The notes beneath the pieces are model-generated. The model searched no databases. It saw nothing but the letters and a program-made list of their open reading frames with translations, and was not told the DNA's origin. Of a stretch of DNA of 64,000 bases, positions 18,259-62,005 are shown one piece after another; position 1 is the stretch's first letter, and each line of letters opens with the position of its first letter. Location: the NCBI GenBank assembly GCA_964016885.1, contig OZ024741.1, positions 171,120,001 through 171,184,000 on the forward strand, read 5' to 3'. Origin of the DNA: Eledone cirrhosa (Eukaryota). The position numbers and the translations under genes are program-made.

Positions 18259-21200
18259 TGGTATTTTCTTCGGGGTTATAAGAGGCTTAGCTCTGTTTCT
18301 CGACCGTTATATCGCGTGACTATCTCCCCCTCCGCCTTTTGGGATTCTTTCTCACGTCGTGTAGACGCGTTCTTGAGACTAGTAAAATGAGGTATCCTCT
18401 TGATAAGTCGGCAGACCTCGCAAGGACTCTATATCTTTATGATATATTGTTTTTGTTTATGCCACGAAACTACGTAGTCGAGGAATTTAGGAGCAGTTTA
18501 GGTATGATACATTTTATTACTAATTATATCTAAATGTTTCGTCTCTCTTCATAATGTATTTTTAACTCTGATACTGGTTCAGTCTAGTTCAACTGAATTG
18601 GCTGTCCCAGTCATTCATTGAGCAACATCGGTGAAGTTGGCACCCTTAACTCACAGTTGGGTGCATATGCATTCATGTATATCTGTGTGTGTCCGCATGT
18701 ATCTGTGTGTTTCTAAATATATTGTTAATAACTCCCTCTGGTCGAGCAATCTTTGAGGTGTGGGGACAGCCGGAAAGCTTCCATTACTCATACTTCTCGC
18801 CTTCTTCACCACCTCTTCTACGGCCTCGATATAAATACCCCCTCCGCCTCCGTGGTATTTTCTTCGGGGTTATAAGAGGCTTAGCTCTGTTTCTCGACCG
18901 TTATATCGCGTGACTATCTCCCCCTCCGCCTTTTGGGATTCTTTCTCACGTCGTGTAGACGCGTTCTTGAGACTAGTAAAATGAGGTATCCTCTTGATAA
19001 GTCGGCAGACCTCGCAAGGACTCTATATCTTTATGATATATTGTTTTTGTTTATGCCACGAAACTACGTAGTCGAGGAATTTAGGAGCAGTTTAGGTATG
19101 ATACATTTTATTACTAATTATATCTAAATGTTTCTTCTCTCTTCATAATGTATTTTTAACTCTGATACTGGTTCAGTCTAGTTCAACTGAATTGGCTGTC
19201 CCAGTCATTCATTGAGCAACATCGGTGAAGTTGGCACCCTTAACTCACAGTTGGGTGCATATGCATTCATGTATATCTGTGTGTGTCCGCATGTATCTGT
19301 GTGTTTCTAAATATATTGTTAATAACTCCCTCTGGTCGAGCAATCTTTGAGGTGTGGGGACAGCCGGAAAGCTTCCATTACTCATACTTCTCGCCTTCTT
19401 CACCACCTCTTCTACGGCCTCGATATAAATAACCCCTCCGCCTCCGTGGTACTTTCTTCGGGGTTATAAGAGGCTTAGCTCTGTTTCTCGACCGTTATAT
19501 CGCGTGACTATCTCCCCCTCCGCCTTTTGGGATTCTTTCTCACGTCGTGTAGACGCGTTCTTGAGACTAGTAAAATGAGGTATCCTCTTGATAAGTCGGC
19601 AGACCTCGCAAGGACTCTATATCTTTATGATATATTGTTTTTGTTTATGCCACGAAACTACGTAGTCGAGGAATTTAGGAGCAGTTTAGGTATGATACAT
19701 TTTATTACTAATTATATCTAAATGTTTCTTCTCTCTTCATAATGTATTTTTAACTCTGATACTGGTTCAGTCTAGTTCAACTGAATTGGCTGTCCCAGTC
19801 ATTCATTGAGCAACATCGGTGAAGTTGGCACCCTTAACTCACAGTTGGGTGCATATGCATTCATGTATATCTGTGTGTGTCCGCATGTATCTGTGTGTTT
19901 CTAAATATATTGTTAATAACTCCCTCTGGTCGAGCAATCTTTGAGGTGTGGGGACAGCCGGAAAGCTTCCATTACTCATACTTCTCGCCTTCTTCACCAC
20001 CTCTTCTACGGCCTCGATATAAATACCCCCTCCGCCTCCGTGGTATTTTCTTCGGGGTTATAAGAGGCTTAGCTCTGTTTCTCGACCGTTATATCGCGTG
20101 ACTATCTCCCCCTCCGCCTTTTGGGATTCTTTCTCACGTCGTGTAGACGCGTTCTTGAGACTAGTAAAATGAGGTATCCTCTTGATAAGTCGGCAGACCT
20201 CGCAAGGACTCTATATCTTTATGATATATTGTTTTTGTTTATGCCACGAAACTACGTAGTCGAGGAATTTAGGAGCAGTTTAGGTATGATACATTTTATT
20301 ACTAATTATATCTAAATGTTTCTTCTCTCTTCATAATGTATTTTTAACTCTGATACTGGTTCAGTCTAGTTCAACTGAATTGGCTGTCCCAGTCATTCAT
20401 TGAGCAACATCGGTGAAGTTGGCACCCTTAACTCACAGTTGGGTGCATATGCATTCATGTATATCTGTGTGTGTCCGCATGTATCTGTGTGTTTCTAAAT
20501 ATATTGTTAATAACTCCCTCTGGTCGAGCAATCTTTGAGGTGTGGGGACAGCCGGAAAGCTTCCATTACTCATACTTCTCGCCTTCTTCACCACCTCTTC
20601 TACGGCCTCGATATAAATAACCCCTCCGCCTCCGTGGTATTTTCTTCGGGGTTATAAGAGGCTTAGCTCTGTTTCTCGACCGTTATATCGCGTGACTATC
20701 TCCCCCTCCGCCTTTTGGGATTCTTTCTCACGTCGTGTAGACGCGTTCTTGAGACTAGTAAAATGAGGTATCCTCTTGATAAGTCGGCAGACCTCGCAAG
20801 GACTCTATATCTTTATGATATATTGTTTTTGTTTATGCCACGAAACTACGTAGTCGAGGAATTTAGGAGCAGTTTAGGTATGATACATTTTATTACTAAT
20901 TATATCTAAATGTTTCTTCTCTCTTCATAATGTATTTTTAACTCTGATACTGGTTCAGTCTAGTTCAACTGAATTGGCTGTCCCAGTCATTCATTGAGCA
21001 ACATCGGTGAAGTTGGCACCCTTAACTCACAGTTGGGTGCATATGCATTCATGTATATCTGTGTGTGTCCGCATGTATCTGTGTGTTTCTAAATATATTG
21101 TTAATAACTCCCTCTGGTCGAGCAATCTTTGAGGTGTGGGGACAGCCGGAAAGCTTCCATTACTCATACTTCTCGCCTTCTTCACCACCTCTTCTACGGC

Positions 21201-21523
21201 CTCGATATAAATACCCCCTCCGCCTCCGTGGTATTTTCTTCGGGGTTATAAGAGGCTTAGCTCTGTTTCTCGACCGTTATATCGCGTGACTATCTCCCCC
21301 TCCGCCTTTTGGGATTCTTTCTCACGTCGTGTAGACGCGTTCTTGAGACTAGTAAAATGAGGTATCCTCTTGATAAGTCGGCAGACCTCGCAAGGACTCT
21401 ATATCTTTATGATATATTGTTTTTGTTTATGCCACGAAACTACGTAGTCGAGGAATTTAGGAGCAGTTTAGGTATGATACATTTTATTACTAATTATATC
21501 TAAATGTTTCTTCTCTCTTCATA

Positions 21524-21529
<6 letters not shown>
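18259..21529 (+). repeat. Tandem array, 5.5 x 594 bp, one variant hammerhead per unit (retrozyme-like)
   Basis: Exact 594-bp period (ORFs at 18339, 18933, 19527, 20121, 20715, 21309). Only three variable positions were seen. Confidence 0.97.
18395..18484 (+). ncRNA. Type I hammerhead with U3-A8 core and long stem II (also starting at 18989, 19583, 20177, 20771, 21365)
   Basis: TCCTC-TTGATAA-GT(C)GGCA...TGCCAC-GAAA-CTACGTAG-TC-GAGGA: stem I TCCTC/GAGGA, palindromic stem III, GUC site. Confidence 0.8.
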
Positions 21530-21560
<31 letters not shown>

Positions 21561-22026
21561 AGTACAATAACAACAAACACATATAAATACACACTAGTGA
21601 ACAACTAATTTCTCTCAATAACTACTTCCTAACTATTTCCCCCACCCCCACACTGCAAGCCAATACCCTGCTTAACATTATAAATGGGTACTTGAGTGCG
21701 ATTTGCAGACTACAACTATGAACTCGATGTATCCCCTTCTCGTAGCTTTCCTCTGTCGTCTCTCTCTATCTCTCTTTCTTTCTCTCTCTCCCTTCTTCTC
21801 TCTCTCTCTCTCTCTCTCTCTCGCCATCGGTCTACCCCCTCCCTCTCCACATCTATGAACCTGCTCTCAGTGGCAATAAATAATTCCAACACAATGCCTA
21901 GGTTGTCAATTTGAGAGTAAACGGTATAATAAAACCCCTACCACATCATTTTGATTAAGCTATCTGTATTCTTCAAACCACTCTCTCCCGTTTCTCCAAC
22001 TCCTAAATCTCTCTCTCTCTCCTAAA

Positions 22027-23108: not shown

Positions 23109-23113
<5 letters not shown>

Positions 23114-26100
23114 TAAGTTAAAGTGTACATCTACATATGTATACGGAAGTATTAGTATGCATATAAATACACACATGTATACATATGTACATGTAATCAG
23201 CTTTTCACTAGACACTTTACAGTGTCAGCTAGTCTGTATGTAACCACACAGACGGACCGGGTTTTAGAGTCATACGGGTTTTCAAGGAAACACATTTCCT
23301 CTATTCTCCAGAGGGCCAGACAGGAATATTGGACTAGTTTCGATGTTATTACATCTCATCAGCAATATTTACCCATCTTCCGGCTTCTCTGGAGAATTGT
23401 AAAAGCACATATCGTTATATGCTTTTTCTATGAAAATTAGTAGTGGGTAGACTAATTTGCATAGAACGTGAGTCATTGTACGCACCGGTTCAGCGGAAAC
23501 GATAAAAACAAATAACGAAACGAAATTAAATTTCGTTTCGCTTCTAACTCACTTTTGTATGACTGACGCTTAAACAATTAAGTTAAAGTGTACATCTACA
23601 TATGTATACGGAAGTATTAGTATGCATATAAATACACACATGTATACATATGTACATGTACTCAGCTTTTCACTAGACACTTTACAGTGTCAGCTAGTCT
23701 GTATGTAACCACACAGACGGACCGGGTTTTAGAGTCATACGGGTTTTCAAGGAAGCACATTTCCTCTATTTTTCAGAGGGCCAGACAGGAATATTGGACT
23801 AGTTTCGATGTTATTACATCTCATCAGCAATATTTACCCATCTTCCGGCTTCTCTGGAGAATTGTAAAAGCACATATCGTTATATGCTTTTTCTATGAAA
23901 ATTAGTAGTGGGTAGACTAATTTGCATAGAACGTGAGTCATTGTACGCACCGGTTCAGCGGAAACGATAAAAACAAATAACGAAACGAAATTAAATTTCG
24001 TTTCGCTTCTAACTCACTTTTGTATGACTGACGCTTAAACAATTAAGTTAAAGTGTACATCTACATATGTATACGGAAGTATTAGTATGCATATAAATAC
24101 ACACATGTATACATATGTACATGTACTCAGCTTTTCACTAGACACTTTACAGTGTCAGCTAGTCTGTATGTAACCACACAGACGGACCGGGTTTTAGAGT
24201 CATACGGGTTTTCAAGGAAACACATTTCCTCTATTCTCCAGAGGGCCAGACAGGAATATTGGACTAGTTTCGATGTTATTACATCTCATCAGCAATATTT
24301 ACCCATCTTCCGGCTTCTCTGGAGAATTGTAAAAGCACATATCGTTATATGCTTTTTCTATGAAAATTAGTAGTGGGTAGACTAATTTGCATAGAACGTG
24401 AGTCATTGTACGCACCGGTTCAGCGGAAACGATAAAAACAAATAACGAAACGAAATTAAATTTCGTTTCGCTTCTAACTCACTTTTGTATGACTGACGCT
24501 TAAACAATTAAGTTAAAGTGTACATCTACATATGTATACGGAAGTATTAGTATGCATATAAATACACACATGTATACATATGTACATGTACTCAGCTTTT
24601 CACTAGACACTTTACAGTGTCAGCTAGTCTGTATGTAACCACACAGACGGACCGGGTTTTAGAGTCATACGGGTTTTCAAGGAAACACATTTCCTCTATT
24701 CTCCAGAGGGCCAGACAGGAATATTGGACTAGTTTCGATGTTATTACATCTCATCAGCAATATTTACCCATCTTCCGGCTTCTCTGGAGAATTGTAAAAG
24801 CACATATCGTTATATGCTTTTTCTATGAAAATTAGTAGTGGGTAGACTAATTTGCATAGAACGTGAGTCATTGTACGCACCGGTTCAGCGGAAACGATAA
24901 AAACAAATAACGAAACGAAATTAAATTTCGTTTCGCTTCTAACTCACTTTTGTATGACTGACGCTTAAACAATTAAGTTAAAGTGTACATCTACATATGT
25001 ATACGGAAGTATTAGTATGCATATAAATACACACATGTATACATATGTACATGTACTCAGCTTTTCACTAGACACTTTACAGTGTCAGCTAGTCTGTATG
25101 TAACCACACAGACGGACCGGGTTTTAGAGTCATACGGGTTTTCAAGGAAACACATTTCCTCTATTCTCCAGAGGGCCAGACAGGAATATTGGACTAGTTT
25201 CGATGTTATTACATCTCATCAGCAATATTTACCCATCTTCCGGCTTCTCTGGAGAATTGTAAAAGCACATATCGTTATATGCTTTTTCTATGAAAATTAG
25301 TAGTGGGTAGACTAATTTGCATAGAACGTGAGTCATTGTACGCACCGGTTCAGCGGAAACGATAAAAACAAATAACGAAACGAAATTAAATTTCGTTTCG
25401 CTTCTAACTCACTTTTGTATGACTGACGCTTAAACAATTAAGTTAAAGTGTACATCTACATATGTATACGGAAGTATTAGTATGCATATAAATACACACA
25501 TGTATACATATGTACATGTACTCAGCTTTTCACTAGACACTTTACAGTGTCAGCTAGTCTGTATGTAACCACACAGACGGACCGGGTTTTAGAGTCATAC
25601 GGGTTTTCAAGGAAACACATTTCCTCTATTCTCCAAAGGGCCAGACAGGAATATTGGACTAGTTTCGATGTTATTACATCTCATCAGCAATATTTACCCA
25701 TCTTCCGGCTTCTCTGGAGAATTGTAAAAGCACATATCGTTATATGCTTTTTCTATGAAAATTAGTAGTGGGTAGACTAATTTGCATAGAACGTGAGTCA
25801 TTGTACGCACCGGTTCAGCGGAAACGATAAAAACAAATAACGAAACGAAATTAAATTTCGTTTCGCTTCTAACTCACTTTTGTATGACTGACGCTTAAAC
25901 AATTAAGTTAAAGTGTACATCTACATATGTATACGGAAGTATTAGTATGCATATAAATACACACATGTATACATATGTACATGTACTCAGCTTTTCACTA
26001 GACACTTTACAGTGTCAGCTAGTCTGTATGTAACCACACATTCGGACCGGGTTTTAGAGTCATACGGGTTTTCAAGGAAACACATTTCCTCTATTCTACA

Positions 26101-26945
26101 GAGGGCCAGACAGGAATATTGGACTAGTTTCGATGTTATTACATCTCATCAGCAATATTTACCCATCTTCCGGCTTCTCTGGAGAATTGTAAAAGCACAT
26201 ATCGTTATATGCTTTTTCTATGAAAATTAGTAGTGGGTAGACTAATTTGCATAGAACGTGAGTCATTGTACGCACCGGTTCAGCGGAAACGATAAAAACA
26301 AATAACGAAACGAAATTAAATTTCGTTTCGCTTCTAACTCACTTTTGTATGACTGACGCTTAAACAATTAAGTTAAAGTGTACATCTACATATGTATACG
26401 GAAGTATTAGTATGCATATAAATACACACATGTATACATATGTACATGTACTCAGCTTTTCACTAGACACTTTACAGTGTCAGCTAGTCTGTATGTAACC
26501 ACACAGACGGACCGGGTTTTAGAGTCATACGGGTTTTCAAGGAAACACATTTCCTCTATTCTACAGAGGGCCAGACAGGAATATTGGACTAGTTTCGATG
26601 TTATTACATCTCATCAGCAATATTTACCCATCTTCCGGCTTCTCTGGAGAATTGTAAAAGCACATATCGTTATATGCTTTTTCTATGAAAATTAGTAGTG
26701 GGTAGACTAATTTGCATAGAACGTGAGTCATTGTACGCACCGGTTCAGCGGAAACGATAAAAACAAATAACGAAACGAAATTAAATTTCGTTTCGCTTCT
26801 AACTCACTTTTGTATGACTGACGCTTAAACAATTAAGTTAAAGTGTACATCTACATATGTATACGGAAGTATTAGTATGCATATAAATACACACATGTAT
26901 ACATATGTACATGTACTCAGCTTTTCACTAGACACTTTACAGTGT
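23109..26945 (-). repeat. 465-bp tandem array, left arm (about 8.25 units, HHR on minus strand)
   Basis: Exact 465-bp period. HHRs at 23325-23369 and every 465 bp up to 26580-26624. Confidence 0.97.
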
Positions 26946-26947
26946 AC

Positions 26948-30170
<3,223 letters not shown>

Positions 30171-34873: not shown

Positions 34874-36393
34874 TATTGTTGTTGATTACAAAGGACTAAA
34901 CTGTGCTGATTCTGAGCTCATGTGAGATTTTTGAGTTGATATTAATGTAAAGAAATCGCCCAGAGAGACGTAAATGTAGATCTTATTTCTGCAACCACAA
35001 CTCTTTGTGCGTGTTTCCAAGAACAATTTACCAATATCCAATATGGATCTCAAAGAAGAAACCATATTATTTAAGGGAGATTATGCTGAGAAAGAAAGAT
35101 TTAGGGGAGTCAGCATGTGACGAATTCAGGGAGCAAGAGAAGTAATTTTTTCCCTTGCACAGAGTCTTACATAGTAACAGCTTCTTATTGTAACGACAAC
35201 AAATATAGAAGAACATGAAAATTCCAACAACAATCACCACAACAAAAATTGTCACCAACAATAACGAAAACATAGTATATATAATAATAATGAAACAAGT
35301 GACAGAAACAAAAATATTATTTTGTTGATTCTGATAACGATTTTCCGATTAGCTAACCACGAATAACAACAGGAGCAACAATAATAATATCAACATTGGT
35401 GACAACTCCATCACAACTACCATCGTTTTTAGAGTGGCAGACGGCAACTTTCCAACAAGAAACATCACTTTCACCAACAACACTGATACGATAAGGAGAA
35501 ATATATGGGCTGTCGAAATACAGTAAGGCTGCAATATATTCAGATTTAACTCAAGCGGATAAACATACATTATATAAACACGTGTGATTGTTGTTCATAC
35601 GAATGTTGTTGGAAAATAAATAAAAGTGTGCTGTCATGTACAAATATATAGATATGAGGAAATGGCGTGTAAAAACATTGACGCACGCATTGGTGAAAAG
35701 GCTTGAAGAAGGTTCGGAAGGAAAAGATTTTACTCTACCGAAGTAGATAATTCGACACGAAGTTTGTATAACTTCTGATAAATTGACGAGGCCGAAATCA
35801 ATCGCCCGTTTGAAGGTTGACGATTTTCCCTTATCCTTTCTGTCATGGGAAGGCGTCTGACGAAGGTAAGGTTGATTTATGTGTTGCATCTTGGAAACTA
35901 AGATGCTTCATCTGAGTTGCTGGACGGGAACTGAGCTGCAGCTACTGATTCAAAGAGATTAGAAGTAGATAAAGAAATTCTCTGACGTGAACAATCTGTA
36001 AAACAGCATAGAATTCTCTTTGGTGTTTGGTGACAAAATTTCAGGTACCACAATTGTGGTGGAAACACACACTTAACGTGTGTCCACTTGGAACAGCGAA
36101 CTAAACAAGCGTTACCCACGTTCTTACCGACTCTAGATACTCAACAGCAAAAACTACTTCGAAAAAAATTACAATAGCAACAGCAGCAACTGCAGCCAAA
36201 CTGCTGTTGCAGGTGTAGCTGCAAACAACAACAGCAACAACATTAACACAAGTAACCCTAGCAATGACAGCTACAGTAAAAACATCAGCAGAACCCGTTA
36301 TCAAATCCCCACCCTCAATATATGAACTCAGAGGGGCAGACAAAGCACATTTGTTCGGGGTACTTCACATCCGAGAACTATCATTATTATTAT

Positions 36394-36775
36394 TGTGGTG
36401 GATTGGCAGTATCGGTAGAGGATCTGACGCCATGCTTTGCAGCATAGAGTTACGGCCATTTATGGTCTGAGTTCAAATCCTGCCGAGGTTAACTTTGCCT
36501 TTCATCCTTACGGGGTCGATGAAATAAAATACCAGTAATGCACTGGGATAATTGCTTGCCTTGTGCCAAAAGTATAAATAATTATTATTGTGGTGGATTG
36601 GCAGTATCGGTAGAGGGTCGGATGCCATACTTTCCAGCATAGTTACGTCCCTTTACGGTCTGAGTTCAAATCCCGCTGAGGTTAAATTTGCCTTTCATCC
36701 TTAGGGGGTCGATAAAATAAAGTACCAGTAATGTACTGGGTAATTGTTGGCCTTGTGCCAAAAGTAGAAACAATT
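36394..36775 (+). mobile_element. Two tandem tRNA-derived SINE copies (36394-36582, 36590-36775)
   Basis: Two near-full family copies joined through a (TTA)n tail. Confidence 0.9.
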
Positions 36776-36859
36776 ATTATTATTGGCTGTCAGACAGTGA
36801 AGACTTGTTTTATTTAGCTCCGCCAAGTGGCAAATTTTCAGTTTTGTTTTGGTTTTCCA

Positions 36860-49656: not shown

Positions 49657-50247
49657 GAATGCCATGGTTGATGGAGGCTCGGCTCTTTAAGGTATAGTAA
49701 TTTTTAACCGCTATAACAATTGTAAATTGTTCAAAACTTGAACCAAATTGTAGATAATAACACCCTTCTCCTCGTGAGAGGGGTCTTTTCTGCCCGTTAT
49801 TTGGCCCTTCGAGGTTAAATAACCACTTATTGGGGTTTTGTGCCCAATATTCATTTTAACCGTAAAAAAAACATGGCTAGAAAAAAGAATTTTCACAAGT
49901 CACTCCAACTTTTTCCGTCTTCTTCTTCCTCAATCGTCACTACATCAGAGAGAAGATTGTCTCTCTCCCTCCCTTCTCTAAATGTGGTGTCACCTCTTTC
50001 GCAAGCGACGCCATTAAAGAAAAAGAAAAATATAGTTTCTGGTAGCTTTCACAAAGAGAACGTGCATTCCGTGGAACATTTCTCCACGACGACGACAACA
50101 ACGAAAAAAGTGTGCGGTAAATACGGAAAGCCATTTCATTCGTCTGACGTCATGAAGGATAGCAGCAGCAGCCGTAATAACAGCAGCAGCAGCAACCGTG
50201 ACAGGGAAAATACTAGTAGCAGCCGCAACAATATCAGCAGCAGCATA

Positions 50248-50278
<31 letters not shown>

Positions 50279-53200
50279 ACAACAGCAGCGGCAGCAACAA
50301 CAACAACCACAGCAACAGCGGCGGCGGCGGTCGTAGTATCAGCAGCAACAACAAAAGTAACAGCAGCTCTGACGACGACAACAACAACAACAAGAAAGAA
50401 AAACCAATCTCGTTTGCAGGTATCGCAAAGAACCTGGAAAATTTTTTCGAAACCCAACACCACTGTACGGTCGCGTACTGTACAGTAAGCACAAAATGAC
50501 GTAGAGTTGAAAGAACCACAGAGGCTCAAATACAAAAAGCCTTAGGGTCTATGTGACAGCGGAAAACGCATATCACCCGAGGCAAGAAATATTCCACCGT
50601 GGACGTGGTTTTTGCCACACCCCAGGAGGCAAAGGGTCAATCCTTAGTGACCCTAAGGAGCGAGGAAATGGTGTTGGTGCCCTCCTACTGCGGGCAAAAA
50701 ATTGTGAGGGTCAAACAGACCAACGCCCCCCCCCCCCTCCCCGAGATGGCCCCTTCTTGGCTGGCCGGGTCTGTCTTCGTTGGTATCGAGGACAAAACAC
50801 CTGTACTGCAAGTGCAAGTACAGAAAAAAGTACGAGAAGATTGGGTAGGCACCTCCATTGAGATGTTAATTGAAACCAACCAGGAGGGCATCGAAGCTAT
50901 TCCGGATGTGAAAGACTTCGATAACGGCACTCAACTGCCCATAAGTGTTGAGGGCAAACGCCCGAAATGCTTTCGCTGTGGGTCGAAGACTCCCCTCAGG
51001 GCCTTTTGCAATGAGAAGAACCTGAGAAAGGAGAAAACCCCCCTCCTTCCGAAACCAGCTCCACTGCTACCAGCAACGCGACAGGCGGCAAACAGGAAGG
51101 ATAGGTCCGTGGTACCCTTACCCACGCCACGCAAATCAAGAACAGCAGCAGCAGTGGAAGTATTAACAACAACAATAGTAATACCAACTGCAACAGAGAC
51201 TCCACTGCAACCATCACCAACAAGCTATAGAGAAAAATAGAGCAGAGGGAGAACTAGTTAGAAAATTAGACGAGGCGCTTAGCAAAGGCATCACGACCGA
51301 CGTACTTGCGGCGAAATTGGCCCTTGACCAATTCTTCAATGAAAAAGTACGAAGGCTGCGTTTTCAGAACTAGGGTGCGTGCTCTCAGACACGAGGGGAC
51401 GAATGCTGTTCAATGGGACCGAGTAGCGGATGCGCGTCGTTGCAACAAAGCCACGATCCGGTCTTTGGTGGACCACGACAGGCGCATGCTACTCGATCCC
51501 GTGTGAAGCTTTTCAGCGACACTTCGCACAGCTGTTAGGGGGCAGCGGCGGGCCGGATCGAGGGATGGATTTTAGTGTCTACCTCGACGGACTGCTGCAG
51601 CTGTCGGCCACTGAGGCGGAGTGCTGCTAAAAGCTGATAACAGCCGCTGAAGTACAGTAAACAATTACTGGCTGCACAAGGGGTAAATCGCCTGGTTTGG
51701 AAAGCTTTCGATAGGGTAGACCACCGTTACTTAGCGGCAGTCCTGAAGGCGGCTGACTTTGGGCTTGTCTTCAGAGGTTGGATCGCTGCCATGCACAGCG
51801 ACATCTGCTCTGTGGTGAGAGTGAACGGTCACCTTTCGGAACCGTTCAACATCATGCGCTCGGTCCGCCAAGGATGTCCCCTCTTGCCCCTCTTGTACGT
51901 ATTGACTCTCGAGCCAGTACTGCACAAACTGGAGACGTTGAGGGGTGTCCCGCGCGAACTAGGATGCGGAAGATCCGTGTCAGCATATGCGGACGCGGTC
52001 ACCGCAGTGGTGTCGAACGCCAAACACATCGAGGCGATCGGCACTTCACTAAGAGAATACCAAGCGGTGACAGGAGCAATGATCAACCAGAAAAAGTTAG
52101 TGGTTCTGCAGCTCGGCACCTGGAGAGGCAGGTCCATGCCGACCAACAGCGTCGTCGGGCGCTGAACGAACGGACCGGTTAAATTGCTAGGGGTCTGGTT
52201 CGGTCCGGCCCTCCAGAGGGACAAAAACTGGGACGAGGTGACGAAATTCGCGGAGAGGAAGCTATCCCTGAAAGGTCGAGCGGAGGTGGCTAACTCGTAC
52301 ATCGCGTCCGTCATCTACTACCGCCTGACCGTCGTACCTTGTCCTAAGACCAGCCTGACTGCGCTGGAGCGTTTGCTCTTTCGCTTTTTGTGGAAGGGAG
52401 GCGCTCCGATGGTCAGGCGGTCAATCTGCTGTCAACACACGCTACGCGGAGGGTTGGGCATGCCGTGGCTGATGATGCGCAGACACGCGCTCAGGCTACG
52501 TCATCTCCACCTATTCCTGGACGTTATTCAGGTGTGGTCGCCGTCTGCTAGACGCTTCTTTCCCCAGCTCGTTTCCTTGACAGAGCTGCAGTCCTGGGTC
52601 AAGCGAACACCGAGGGGGAGTGCTTGGAGACTGGAATGTTTTCAGGCGCTCACAGCCCTCGACCAATCGGGCAATGTGATCGGTGGAAACTCCACCTTGG
52701 CGTTCTATAGAAGATTAGTGGAGGGGAAGAGCAACGACGTACTGTGGGGAAACTCTTGGCGTCGACGTCAATCAACTAGCCAATCTCTTCGGAAGAACTT
52801 TCGGGCCGGGGCCTATGGACAACTTCCAGAAATCCCTGGCCTGGCAGTGCTACCGAGGAGCTTTGCCAGTTCGGGATAAATTCTACAGGCATGGAGGTGC
52901 CCTCAGCCGGGCATGTCCGAGATTCGCGCAGGGCGATGAAACAGTCCTGCACGCACTCGTCCAGTGTCCGAGCATTGCTGACTTGTGGGTTTATGTCGAA
53001 CACCTGCTGTCGCGTGTAGGACGGATCCAGCTATCAGCTGAGTGCATCGTGAAGATTTCCACGCCCTCTTCCTTTAACCGGGAAGGGCAGGCAGTTGTTA
53101 TCTGTCTGATGGCCATGGCGAAAGAGATAGTATGGTGGACACGTTTGAAAGGGCTGAAGACGAGCACTTACCTCTTCGGTGATGCCCTGATTAACTTTTT

Positions 53201-53430
53201 CAAATTTCATTTGAAAAGGAAAATCAGGGTAGAGAGGGAAGTGCTCTCTTCCCAGCATTTTGTTGAAAATGGGTGAGAGAGGCAAGAATGGCCCGAGTGA
53301 ATGGGCCTACTCTGAGTATGTGTCTGTAAATTAAAGGTGGAAAAGTGGGAGAGGGCACTTGCCCTGGTGGTCAGGGTCACTGTGGCTTTTTAATGGGCTT
53401 TCTACACGAATGTCCCTCGGAAGTCTCTCC
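49657..53430 (+). mobile_element. Tx1/L1-like LINE, internally deleted (ORF1, partial RT, C-terminal Zn finger, 3'UTR)
   Basis: ORF1 with RPKCFRCG knuckle. KAFDRVDH, RSVRQGCPL.PLLYVL.LEP, AYADAV, GGLG and CPRF...ETVLHALVQC. The endonuclease is deleted at about 51225. Confidence 0.93.
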
Positions 53431-56400
53431 CGAGCAAACGGCGACTACACCTGATCACCGTCGAGGAAGAGGTGGAGATGTCGTAGCCTGAGCGCGTGTC
53501 TGCGCATCATCAGCCACGGCGTCCCAGCCCTCCACGTAGCGGGTGTTGACAGCAGATTGACCGCCTGACTATCAGAGCGCTTCCCTTCCACAAAAAGGGA
53601 AAGAGCAAACGCTCCAGCGCAGCCAGGCGGGGCTTAGGACAAGGTACGACGGTCAGGCGGTAGTAGATGACGGACGCGATATACGCGTCAACCACCTCCG
53701 CTCGACCTTTCAGGGATAGCTTCCTCTCCGCCCATTTCTGGGTGAGAGAAGCCACCTTGCTCGTCACCTCGTCCGATGTGTTTGGCATTCGACACCACTA
53801 CGGTGACATCGTCCGCATATGCTGACACAGATTTTCCACATCCTAGTTCGCGCGGGACCCCCCTCAACGTCTCCATTTGTGCAGTAATGTCTCGAGAGTC
53901 AATACGTACAAGAGGGACGAGAGGGGACATCCTTGGCGGACCGAGCGCATGATGTTGAACGGCTCCGAAAGGTGACAGTTCACTCTCAACACAGAGCAGA
54001 TGTCGCTGTGCATGGCAGCGATCCAGCCTCTGAAGACGGGCCCAAAGCCAGCCGCCCTCAGGACTGTTGCTAGGTAACGATGGTCGACCTTATCAAAAGC
54101 TTTCGACTGATCTAAATTGATCAAGGACCCACCCGTGCCAGGTTCCCTAGCTACCCTCTCTACGATGTATCGCATGAGGTGGAGGTTGTCGTGGATGGAT
54201 CTGTCGGGAATGGCGCCTCTCCCACCAGACCACCAACGACAAGCGCCAACCTCTTTGCTAGCACCTTGTCCAAAATCTTGAACTCTGGGTTTAGCAGAGT
54301 TGTGGGCCTGAAATTATCTATGTTATCCCCCTTGTTCGGATCCTTTCACAGCAGCGCCACAGCTCCTCGGCTCACAGAGCTGGGAATTCTCCCGTTCTGT
54401 TGCCATTTGCAGTAGACGTCCGCCAAGAGACCTCCGAACAAGTCTGGTATCTGTACGTAAAGTTAATAGGGCAGACCATCCAAACCAGGCGATTTGTCCC
54501 TTGTGCAACAAGTCATTGCCTCCCGTACTTCAGCGGCTGTTATCGGCTTTTCGCAGCACTCCGCCTCAGTGGCCGAGAGCTGTGGAATTCCGTCGAGGTA
54601 GACACTAAAGTCCATCCCTCAATCTGCCCGACGCTGCCCCCGAACAGCTGAGCGAAGTGTAGCTGGAAAGTTTCACGCATTTTCCCGGGATCGAGTAGCA
54701 TGCGCCCGTCGTGGTCCACCAAAGACCGGATCGTGGAATTGTTGCAACGACGCGCATCCGCTGCTCGGGCCCATTGAACGGCTTTCGTACCCTCGTGTCT
54801 GAGAGCACGCACCCTAACTCTGACAACGCAGCATTCGTGCTTTGCATTGAAGAATTGGTCAAGGGCCAATTTCGCTGCAAGTATGTCGGTCGCGATGCCT
54901 TTGCTAAGCGCCTCGTCTAATTTTCTAACTAGTTCTCCCTCTGCTCTATTTTTCTCTATTGCCAAAGCCTTACTAAACCTAATGGACTCTATTCTAATCG
55001 CTCTTTTCAGAGCAAACCACCACTTGTGGTCGACGATGGCCCCCGTCAACGCCCGCCTAACTAGTTCGCTAATCCGGTCTCTGTAGGCCTTGCGCGCTGT
55101 TAAAGACGCGTTTAGCTTCCAGTAGCCGGGTCCTCGTCTATGAAGCCTAGCTAAATCTAGCACACAGATCACGAATTTGTGGTCCGTGTAGCTGACTATC
55201 TTGAATTGTGGACAGCCTATGCTAGACCTATCTATTTCACTACAAAATACTCTATTGCGGTTTGTCCAGTCCACATTGGCACATTAGGGAAATCCAATCG
55301 GTACCTGTCAGACAGTTCAAAACGCCTGTGCTGGTTGGTGAGGCTCTTGCAACCTCCTCCCCTATCCGCTAATCCCACACAGTCCCAGCGTGCATCTAAG
55401 ATCCTGTTCCAGTCGCCCACTAACATTAAAGAGCGGGACGTTCCTAGAAAGGTCTCCAGACGCCGGAAGAAATCAGGCCGCCCTGCTCCTGTGGGGGCAT
55501 AGACGGCCACTAGCCTGAAAGCTTGCCCGTCTCCGCCGGTCACATCCAGCACCAGCAACTTACCTTCTGGGTCCAGGAAGATGGCCCGTATGGCGAGATC
55601 CAAACCTCTCCGAAAAAGCGCAGCAACTCCTCCCCCCGATTCAGGACGGCTAGTAGGTGCGTACACATCGTAGCCGCCGAAGATCGGTGCGAAGGCCCGT
55701 GCTTCGGAGATTCTGGTCTCGCTGATAGCCACTACATCTATGTTTAGTGACCTGAGGTCGTTGAGCAGGTGGCCCTGCTTCCATAACGACCCCAAGCCAC
55801 GCGCATTTATGATGCCTCTTCTGAGTGAGGTCATGTTGAAATGGAGTGGAAAAGATGGGAAAGACCTTACTTCTCGTAGAGGAAGGATGGTTTCTCCATC
55901 ACTTTTCACTTGATCGTCTGGTAAAGGGACCGTTGATCGTCCCTTCGGCTGGTCGTCGGTTCTTCCGTGAGTACATCCGAATATACTCTCCGGTTGAGTG
56001 TCCCTCCTAGGTTTCTGAAATCACCAACTGGGTTGGGGAATCCGTTTATATGTTTGTGTATTATTTCTGTGCTATTCTTACCAGTCTTTTGTTCGTTGGT
56101 GTTTTGATTGGTGCTGGTATTATGAAGTCGTGCTGTGAAATGTCTGTGTCTTCAATTATGTAAGTCATTAGTTTCTTGTTGTGTGTATTTATTGCTGTGC
56201 ATTTATTTTTCTGGGGGTGGGGTGTAGTTCTGCTATTTTCTTGTCGTTGTTGCTGGGTGTGTGTGTCTTGCGATGTTGGTGCTTATGGTGGTGGTGTTGA
56301 AGGTGTTGAAGGTTGTTGTTAATACTTCCACTGCTACTGCTGTTCTTGATTTCCGTGGGGTGGGTATGGGTAACACTGACCTATCCTTCCTGCTTGCCGC

Positions 56401-58338: not shown

Positions 58339-58505
58339 ACCTCTCTCTCTCACAAACACACAGCCACAGACACGCACGTATACATACACACACACACGTG
58401 TGCTCCCAAACTATGACTGTATATCTGTATCTAAACAGATTAGAGCAATATGAATTGAGTACACGTTGAAACTGAAAATATACATATTAGTTGATATTAT
58501 TAATT

Positions 58506-58877
58506 GATTGGCAGTATCGGTAGAGGGTCGGACGCCATGCTTTCTAGCATAGTTACGTCCCTTTACAGTCTGAGTTCAAATCCCGCCGAGGTTGACTCTG
58601 CCTTTCATCCTCACGGGGTCGATAAAATAAAGTACCAGTAATGCACTGGGTAATTGCTGGCCTTGTGCCTAAAGTAGAAACAATTATTGATTGATTGGAT
58701 TGGTAGTATCGGTAGAGGGTCTGACGCCATGCTTTGCAGCAAAGAGTTACGGCACTTTATTGTCTGAGTTCAAATCCCGCTGAGGTTAACTGCCTTTCAT
58801 CCTTACGGGGTCGATAAAATAAAGTACCAGTAATGCACTGGTTTATTGCTGGCCTTGTGCCAAAAGTAGAAACAATT
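58506..58877 (+). mobile_element. Two tandem tRNA-derived SINE copies (58506-58685, 58696-58877)
   Basis: Two family copies separated by a (TGAT)n-like tail. Confidence 0.9.
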
Positions 58878-59132
58878 ATTGATTGATTAATTATTTGTAT
58901 TTGTTTAAACTGGTCGAGAACTTGAATTGGGTAGATGTTGAACAGACATAATTGTTTTGTTTAGACTCTGAATTTGACTGCCAAAAACCTGGATGGGATA
59001 TTTCATCTTTCGTTGAGAAAAAACACGCGACAGTGAGTGATACTACAATCATTAACGGCAACGTTTTACACCGTATTCTACGCACAGAAGGGAAAACTAT
59101 TGAAAACGTGAGTGCAATCGAGGATATTATAT

Positions 59133-61635: not shown

Positions 61636-62005
61636 TATACGATATTAAATAAATGGAAACTATATTTATAAAACCATATTTATTTCATTATATATATTTC
61701 AGGGATATCATATTAAAAGTATGGTATGCCTTCATCAGACAAAATACAATATAAACAGTCTTATAAATAGATAGATTTGACATACCTTACAACTTCAACT
61801 TCCATTTAAAAAGTTGATTTAAAAAGTTGATTTAAATGGAAGTTGAAGTTGTAAGGTATGTCAAATCTATCTATTTATAAGACTGTTTATATTGTATTTT
61901 GTCTGATGAAGGCATACCATACTTTTAATATGATATCCCTGAAATATATATAATGAAATAAATATGGTTTTATAAATATAGTTTCCATTTATTTAATATC
62001 GTATA
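61636..62005. mobile_element. Perfect-armed fold-back with hammerhead in each arm (61681-61746 minus; 61895-61960 plus)
   Basis: Arms of about 175 bp look identical in reverse complement. TATTTTGT-CTGATGA-AGG...CCT-GAAA-TATATA-TA-ATGAAATA. Related fragments occur at 1-62 and 30710-30775. Confidence 0.9.

Follow-up and report, generated by a model that had tools for sequence, protein, structure and literature searches.

A dispersed 594-bp retrozyme-like repeat of Eledone cirrhosa with a U3-A8 hammerhead and a likely stem I/II pseudoknot

The 594-bp array and its surroundings

We analyzed a stretch of 64,000 nucleotides from Eledone cirrhosa (contig OZ024741.1, positions 171,120,001 to 171,184,000), which we call the window and whose own numbering is used below. 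On its forward strand, positions 18260 to 21529 hold an array in which five whole 594-bp units are followed by a partial sixth (∼300 nt), which terminates in (TA)n; the array is a single insertion, and its unit recurs genome-wide at 98 to 99% identity. The units vary at three positions in all. Along the five whole units (18260 to 21229), unit position 579 alternates C-A-C-A-C, as expected from a two-unit template or from duplication. On neither strand of the unit did we find an open frame longer than chance.

An earlier note on this DNA had read a hammerhead-like motif, TCCTC-TTGATAA-[59 nt]-GAAA-CTACGTAG-TC-GAGGA (18395 to 18484), in all six copies of the repeat. The motif indeed recurs letter for letter with a period of 594, starting at 18395, 18989 (copy 2, 18989 to 19078), 19583, 20177, 20771, and 21365, and, as claimed, positions 3 and 8 are the only ones at which TTGATAA and CTGATGA disagree. 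Its core fits YUGANRA/GAAA/UH with a Watson-Crick 3-8 pair, which is U3-A8 in six of six copies. Features of type I hammerheads are present as well: three helices with an open helix I, and G10.1-C11.1 and A15.1-U16.1. Stems I and III show double changes.

In the first unit, all on the + strand, the 5′ strand of stem I (18395 to 18399) pairs with 18480 to 18484, and this stem covaries in older lineages. Core nucleotides 3 to 9, U3-U-G-A-U-A8-A9, follow at 18400 to 18406, and a long stem II occupies 18407 to 18465 with a basal helix that has one bulge, an internal loop, and a distal hairpin. G12-A13-A14, the palindromic stem III (A-CTACGTAG-T), and C17 lie at 18466 to 18479. By the hammerhead consensus, the predicted cut falls after C17 at 18479, and the 3′ strand of stem I would be the 5′ end of the unit-length RNA. 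Directly 5′ of stem I in every unit stands TGAGGT (18388 to 18393), predicted to form a pseudoknot with ACCTCG in the internal loop of stem II (18415 to 18420). Given this strand, the ribozyme probably starts 7 nt further upstream, at 18388. A 48-codon frame that begins with ATG (18388 to 18534) spans the entire hammerhead of the young unit; frames of Penelope-like elements (PLEs) can start in the hammerhead.

About 22 nt beyond the cut is a splice-donor-like AG|GTATGA (18500 to 18507, + strand), and a donor-like GGT ∼20 nt past the predicted cut is present in most lineages. Two contigs of run X4, a run of unrecorded kind, exit the element exactly at AG|GT (18501/18502 and, in unit 2, 19095/19096). 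The site is a hint, and only a hint, of a PLE-type intron signal, and copies might splice into host exons. Contigs of four sequencing runs, whose kind is likewise unrecorded, cover the unit joined head to tail, which has no bearing on expression.

Searched against Rfam, one 594-bp unit gave no hammerhead match even at E values up to 10, so the prediction that motif searches would overlook the family holds for Rfam. The 469-bp and 465-bp arrays of the window are matched by Hammerhead_HH9, below the gathering score. The 594-bp family was also correctly called unrelated to these hammerhead arrays (best BLAST E value, 0.17). They lie at 5145 to 7000 and 23109 to 30057, are related to each other (86% alike), and carry canonical C3-G8 hammerheads; the array at 23109 to 30057 is a 7-kb fold-back. 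Elsewhere in the window, tandem 192- to 193-bp units with a tRNA-like GAGTTCAAATCC box occur at 36386 to 36781 and 58495 to 58892, presumably a SINE. A 6-kb stretch at 50000 to 56000 has 51 to 55% GC and CAG/CAA runs in a background of 30 to 36% GC and probably represents either one long coding exon or a different element. The inverted repeat at 61737 to 61904 is long and almost perfect.

Immediately upstream of the 594-bp array, on the same strand, is the decayed 3′ part of an older PLE (17460 to 18259), with a CX4CxxC linker and a YIGET sequence that we take to be a GIY-YIG endonuclease motif. The PLE label rests on these two motifs, and Pfam returned no family for the fragment. The linker pattern is described for Neptune, Nematis, and Naiad elements in bioRxiv 10.1101/2021.04.23.441226. 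The tail of the older element resumes past the array, at 21550 to 21583 (+ strand). Since the tail known from its relatives reappears directly after the array, the array is an insertion in an AT-rich spot of this element, which was its target and not its parent. None of 29 other copies of the frame is followed by a 594-bp unit, and most have their own tail and a canonical C3-G8 hammerhead. The decayed CX4CxxC family (loci L032 to L060) is abundant, with 3938 candidates, and, ∼200 nt from the start of its tail, bears a separate minimal C3-G8 hammerhead; the window copy lacks ∼210 bp present in its relatives.

Genome-wide copies and insertion ends

An exact 20-mer across stem I, core, and stem II matched the genome 6067 times, versus 0 matches for the reversed control. 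A DNA search returned 1205 candidates; among the 39 that were scored, 98 to 99% identity was seen on many contigs. The family has ∼6,000 young copies and many older lineages, including some at 75 to 83% identity (421 and 425 pattern matches). Copies are dispersed, mostly in (TA)n, 5′ truncated, and often inverted, and whole units stand head to tail in both young and old lineages. A tandem, non-coding unit with one type I hammerhead each, dispersed in high copy number without LTRs or a coding frame, shares these traits with non-LTR retrozymes. The suspicion of a second retrozyme-like family with a large monomer is supported.

The 3′ ends of the copies cluster at two sites ∼165 nt apart: end A at unit position ∼300 (18550 to 18560, + strand), where the array itself stops in its sixth unit, and end B at ∼455 to 470 (18714 to 18730, + strand). 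Among 50 ungapped two-armed insertions (5 gapped ones were excluded), 38 join A with B, 4 join A with A, 1 joins B with B, and 7 have other ends. Where both ends were classed, A is paired with B in 38 of 43, against an expectation of one-half (P ∼1e-7). One-armed insertions (n = 46) end at A in 27 cases and at B in 11. The 5′ ends of young arms show no enrichment at the predicted cut (1 of 73, with 1.1 expected).

Among the loci scanned, no autonomous partner homologous to the 594-bp unit was found; a scan for frames, made at loci other than L088 to L207, met no uninterrupted sense-strand junction between a unit and a PLE frame. L014 was rejected as a full-length helper because its neighbor, set off by an unrelated spacer, is a piece of a different decayed PLE. 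The PLE frames near old units at L226/L253 and L240/L254 were rejected too, being separated from the units by other sequence or having a hammerhead of their own. At L253, a nearly whole, frame-broken PLE with a reverse transcriptase and a C-terminal endonuclease (2609 to 5537, − strand) lies ∼600 bp from an old unit; (TA)n separates the two, so the locus gives no evidence of partnership.

Ribozyme conservation, the 3-8 pair, and the predicted pseudoknot

To study selection on the ribozyme, we picked 30 older copies by a pattern outside it, of which 29 were used and one did not cover it. Divergence from the window amounts to 8/348 cells (2.3%) in the core versus 1037/4409 (23.5%) in the flanks. 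The stems diverge at 19/232 cells (stem III), 38/377 (basal stem II), 39/290 (stem I), and 365/1334 (27%; distal stem II). A column-level Fisher test of conservation was not significant (9/44 versus 54/156 columns variable; P = 0.10). In the 29 copies and the window, 93% of the cells of the named structure are paired and 11 are double-change cells, a count that 0 of 500 shuffles equaled; these fall in stems I and III, at three pairs only, a number of pairs not above that of the shuffles. In older lineages, the changes are of the kinds expected: stem I has changed from C-G to U-A and from U-A through U-G to C-G, the stem III palindrome has changed from A-U to G-C, and the bulged base of stem II varies freely. 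Stem III is palindromic or nearly so also in altered 8- and 10-nt forms. On this sequence evidence, with the 20-mer matches of the genome set against their empty control and the core far less diverged than the flanks, the motif is not a product of chance. Likewise, the hammerhead core and the three stems are maintained by selection across lineages.

Energy models favor the hammerhead in pairs of copies. Cofolding of two copies gave a double hammerhead with an unpaired core at −60.9 kcal/mol versus −47.2 kcal/mol for two monomers (13.7 lower). In the monomer, pair probabilities are 0.2 for stem I and 0.04 or less for stem III. Longer segments fold otherwise, a GAGG/CCTC hairpin competing in them, and RNAalifold did not recover the hammerhead fold. 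As a circle, the unit folds with a z score of −4.4 against 25 shuffles.

Position 8 of the hammerhead acts via its 2′-OH and G12 acts as a base, so A-U can replace G-C. The change to U3-A8 had been proposed to be compensatory, with covariation of positions 3 and 8 among copies as its test. Among young copies, this covariation fails: position 3 is altered in 14 and position 8 in 13, both are altered in none, and no C3-G8 was found. Such single changes follow from the decay of inserted copies, so the signal can be read at the lineage level only and independence among copies is an ill-posed test. Across lineages, by contrast, covariation holds, with three switches on the tree, and at that level the compensatory reading is supported.

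These lineages came from several searches. A search for C3-G8 copies that keep the stem III of the young family had 0 matches, and one for shorter-stem relatives with this stem III had 34, which are deletions or rearrangements. A search via the changed palindrome gave 69 matches, including relatives at ∼62% identity in which the stems are new, position 7 varies freely, and U3-A8 persists. A C3-G8 hammerhead of the same build was met by chance in the flank of locus L229. The pattern of its lineage matched 76 times versus 2 in the control, counts forced by a pattern that holds both pseudoknot strands and the core, and 2 of the 76 look like chance. One apparent C3-G8 copy proved to be a mis-match on the TGAGG strand. 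The upstream flank by itself suffices to align the C3-G8 sister lineage with a U3-A8 lineage (z = 7.5 to 22.9 over 5 x 4 pairs), and the window is linked to them through other lineages (z = 9.5 to 12.3).

The tree was built from 53 copies (the window and 52 that span the lineages) with positions 3 and 8 masked. It requires three state changes, forced by the starred branches and the same in all bootstrap trees, of which one depends on a single long-branch copy (L288) and one on two copies; the U3-A8 and C3-G8 states that it compares were imposed by the search patterns, and the pseudoknot pattern excluded mixed states. Mixed states were permitted in the young-copy, shorter-stem, and changed-palindrome searches only, and there they are scattered single copies. 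The three switches may be, for example, three moves from U-A to C-G; in a 22-row alignment, the pair is U-A in 14 rows and C-G in 8. Since the tree needs three U-A/C-G switches, the compensation is a natural one, and we infer from the aligned copies that the pair flipped between the two states at least three times in the history of the lineages. Within the C3-G8 sister lineage, one branch (L256 to L285) has A at position 17 and an 11-nt, non-palindromic stem III, and its ribozyme could fold as a monomer. The flanks of L227 and L229 also hold another canonical hammerhead, unrelated to the 594-bp family, with an 8-bp stem I, a 36-nt stem II, and a palindromic TGCGCA stem III.

Between lineages, stem II differs in its distal sequence and in length (44 to 62 nt). 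The 5′ side of its internal loop is always CCTC(A/G), 8 to 9 nt after A9, and TGAGG stands 6 to 7 nt before U3. In the window, TGAGGT is complementary to ACCTCG, and the duplex of −8.0 kcal/mol is reached by 0.7% of random pairs of segments from the unit; this control uses energies, as one by helix length is uninformative because G-U runs score as long helices. The complementary strands occur also in copies gathered without requiring them, including the C3-G8 copy at L229. Each of the 10 larger superfamily clusters retains a helix of 5 to 7 bp at this place; the two copies that form an eleventh cluster carry a motif unrelated to it. A pattern of both strands and a U3-A8 core with a non-U at position 7 gave 296 matches versus 0 in the reversed control, counts again forced by the elements that the pattern holds, and stems I and II between the knot strands are widely different among the pattern matches. 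In alignment A1, no pair within the knot strands has changes on both sides. Differences between lineages are wobble changes only (U-A to U-G), and L219 has one single-copy double change. Lineages with TGAGGG have no splice donor and keep the pairing. From these comparisons, TGAGG(T) and (A)CCTC(A/G) likely form a stem I/II pseudoknot in all main lineages, which would account for the long stem II. Literature searches, with figures and some supplements outside their scope and sources available in part, brought up no description of pseudoknots in the hammerheads of animal PLEs or retrozymes, nor any of cephalopod retrozymes.

A retrozyme reading, its alternatives, and known systems

The 594-bp unit is probably a non-coding, non-autonomous non-LTR retrozyme. 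Its type I hammerhead is predicted to cut the dimer after C18479, likely with the help of the stem I/II knot, and its copies would enter (TA)n through a likely borrowed Penelope-type enzyme. As modeled by cofolding, neighboring hammerheads would swap stem III strands to form a double hammerhead, and the TGAGG(T):(A)CCTC(A/G) pairing would hold stems I and II parallel, as loop-loop contacts do in canonical type I hammerheads. If the knot does the job of these contacts, stem II would owe its extra length to being the scaffold of the internal loop. By analogy with the retrozymes of coral, mussel, and axolotl, transcription would be followed by release of a 594-nt monomer from cut to cut and its ligation to a circle. 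By analogy with the anole PLE, a helper protein would nick both strands of AT-rich DNA, and reverse transcription would start at two internal sites, ∼80 and ∼245 nt downstream of the cut, so that insertions have several units and two arms. More tentatively, and with some doubt, we see in the lineages an old, still active retrozyme superfamily of an undescribed build that combines a dimer-type stem III with a 5- to 6-bp knot from the flank into the internal loop; the knot would stabilize the active fold so well that the 3-8 pair could flip freely.

The same element and helper might instead use a linear tandem transcript as a template, with a slow or protein-assisted hammerhead, no circle, and arrays derived from parent arrays or local duplication. 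We consider this unlikely. That the core and the dimer-type palindromes have been strongly conserved in many lineages implies that the ribozyme matters, and the animal retrozymes tested, from coral, mussel, and axolotl, accumulate as circles (PMC7229834). A linear template would sit well with the missing 5′-end mark at the cut, with the alternation at unit position 579, which fits a two-unit template or duplication, and with the anole Poseidon PLE, whose hammerhead is described in PMC11167929 as cutting only with protein and as dispensable for insertion in vitro. Of no greater weight is the reading that the hammerhead is real and that TGAGG and CCTCA stay unpaired, kept for recognition by a helper protein, by splicing, or by a promoter factor, with the long stem II as a protein-binding arm. 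Both strands are almost invariant, without a lineage-level double change, and TGAG|GT can be read as a splice donor in some lineages. Yet the strands are perfectly complementary at a fixed spacing while the intervening stems are replaced, their existing changes are wobble compatible, and TGAGGG lineages still pair without a donor. Pseudoknots serve at this place in ∼40% of hammerhead representatives, across all three types, according to PMC3088659.

It is quite improbable that an undiscovered autonomous PLE has the unit as its terminal repeat (pLTR) and that the array is a run of solo ends and no independent replicon. PLE-type ends, a palindromic stem III, a basal bulge in stem II, and a donor-like motif are indeed pLTR traits (PMC4209133). 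However, the PLE fragment next to the array is interrupted by it and comes with a separate tail and canonical hammerhead, the frame scan described above met no unbroken sense junction of a unit with a PLE frame, and whole units stand head to tail in lineages both young and old. Least credible by far is an ordinary satellite whose hammerhead-like motif is dead or arose by chance. The blank Rfam result and the monomer fold, which energy models do not favor, agree with it; the tenfold-lower divergence of the core, the double changes in stems I and III, the homologous C3-G8 lineages, and dispersal with retrotransposon ends do not.

Hammerheads of animal retroelements have been described as minimal, slow, and without tertiary contacts. 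If the retrozyme reading with its knot is true, the conserved pseudoknot would be a fast, protein-free solution, PLE-type hammerheads would not all be minimal, and the lineages would be a naturally occurring series on which to examine the buffering of core changes by distal structure. The knot would also explain why variants with a long stem II escape Rfam and descriptor searches, so that counts of invertebrate retrozymes would be underestimates. Phylogenetic confirmation of the 3-8 tertiary pair is rare, and repeated natural U-A/C-G switches within a single homologous family provide it; the switch lineages are ready-made constructs. Two fixed ends on opposite arms allow a direct test of how a PLE protein copies non-coding RNA into both strands.

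Natural U3-A8 cores have been published and are active in vitro (PMC3088659), and a dedicated descriptor picked out ∼1,300 U3-A8 hammerheads in the PLE ends of Schistosoma (PMC4209133). Retrozyme units, as PLE derivatives, range from 51 to 972 bp, and only one of nine Xenopus retrozyme dimers tested was cleaved (bioRxiv 10.64898/2026.07.22.740005). Neither the U3-A8 core nor the unit size is new; the likely pseudoknot and the repeated natural 3-8 switch are the additions. Like the metazoan non-LTR retrozymes (PMC7229834; bioRxiv 10.64898/2026.07.22.740005), the 594-bp family, which lies within their size range, has a non-coding tandem unit with one type I hammerhead each, thousands of dispersed monomers to multimers, GC of <45%, a self-paired unit, and a presumed PLE helper. 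Unlike them, it has a U3-A8 core, a 59-nt stem II with an internal loop, a likely knot that replaces canonical loop contacts, and two fixed PLE-type ends ∼165 nt apart. The retrozymes of coral, mussel, and axolotl have been seen as RNA circles (PMC7229834).

With the hammerheads of metazoan PLEs, among them the U3-A8 variant of Cercyon from Schistosoma mansoni (PMC4209133), the family shares U3-A8 covariation, an unusually long helix II, a short helix I, a palindromic helix III, predicted action as a dimer, and a nearby intron signal. In contrast to the published helix II of 6 to 8 bp, stem II of the superfamily measures 44 to 62 nt, and both core states occur in one homologous group. In PMC7761336, PLE hammerheads are called minimal and said to lack loop-loop contacts; the stem II loop of the superfamily, by contrast, is conserved and complementary to the 5′ flank of stem I. 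As in pseudoknot-stabilized hammerheads (PMC3088659), a short stem I/II helix would replace non-canonical loop contacts. The example tested there is a type II ribozyme from a metagenome, and highly repetitive type I motifs were excluded from some of the analysis; unlike in that example, the partner strand of the 594-bp family is placed in the internal loop of its long stem II, and the ribozyme is of the dimer type and belongs to an animal retroelement. The build is not that of the pistol-like PK hammerhead, whose knot replaces helix II (PMC11300833), nor is it a permuted type SGC (PMC10085705). Finally, the Poseidon protein of Anolis nicks AT-rich DNA on both strands and extends each of them, and two internal start sites fix the genomic ends (PMC11167929). 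The 594-bp family resembles it in AT-rich targets, probable extension of both strands, and two probable starts downstream of the hammerhead; Poseidon is autonomous and its starts lie 30 to 40 nt apart in the tail, whereas the spacing between ends A and B is ∼165 nt.
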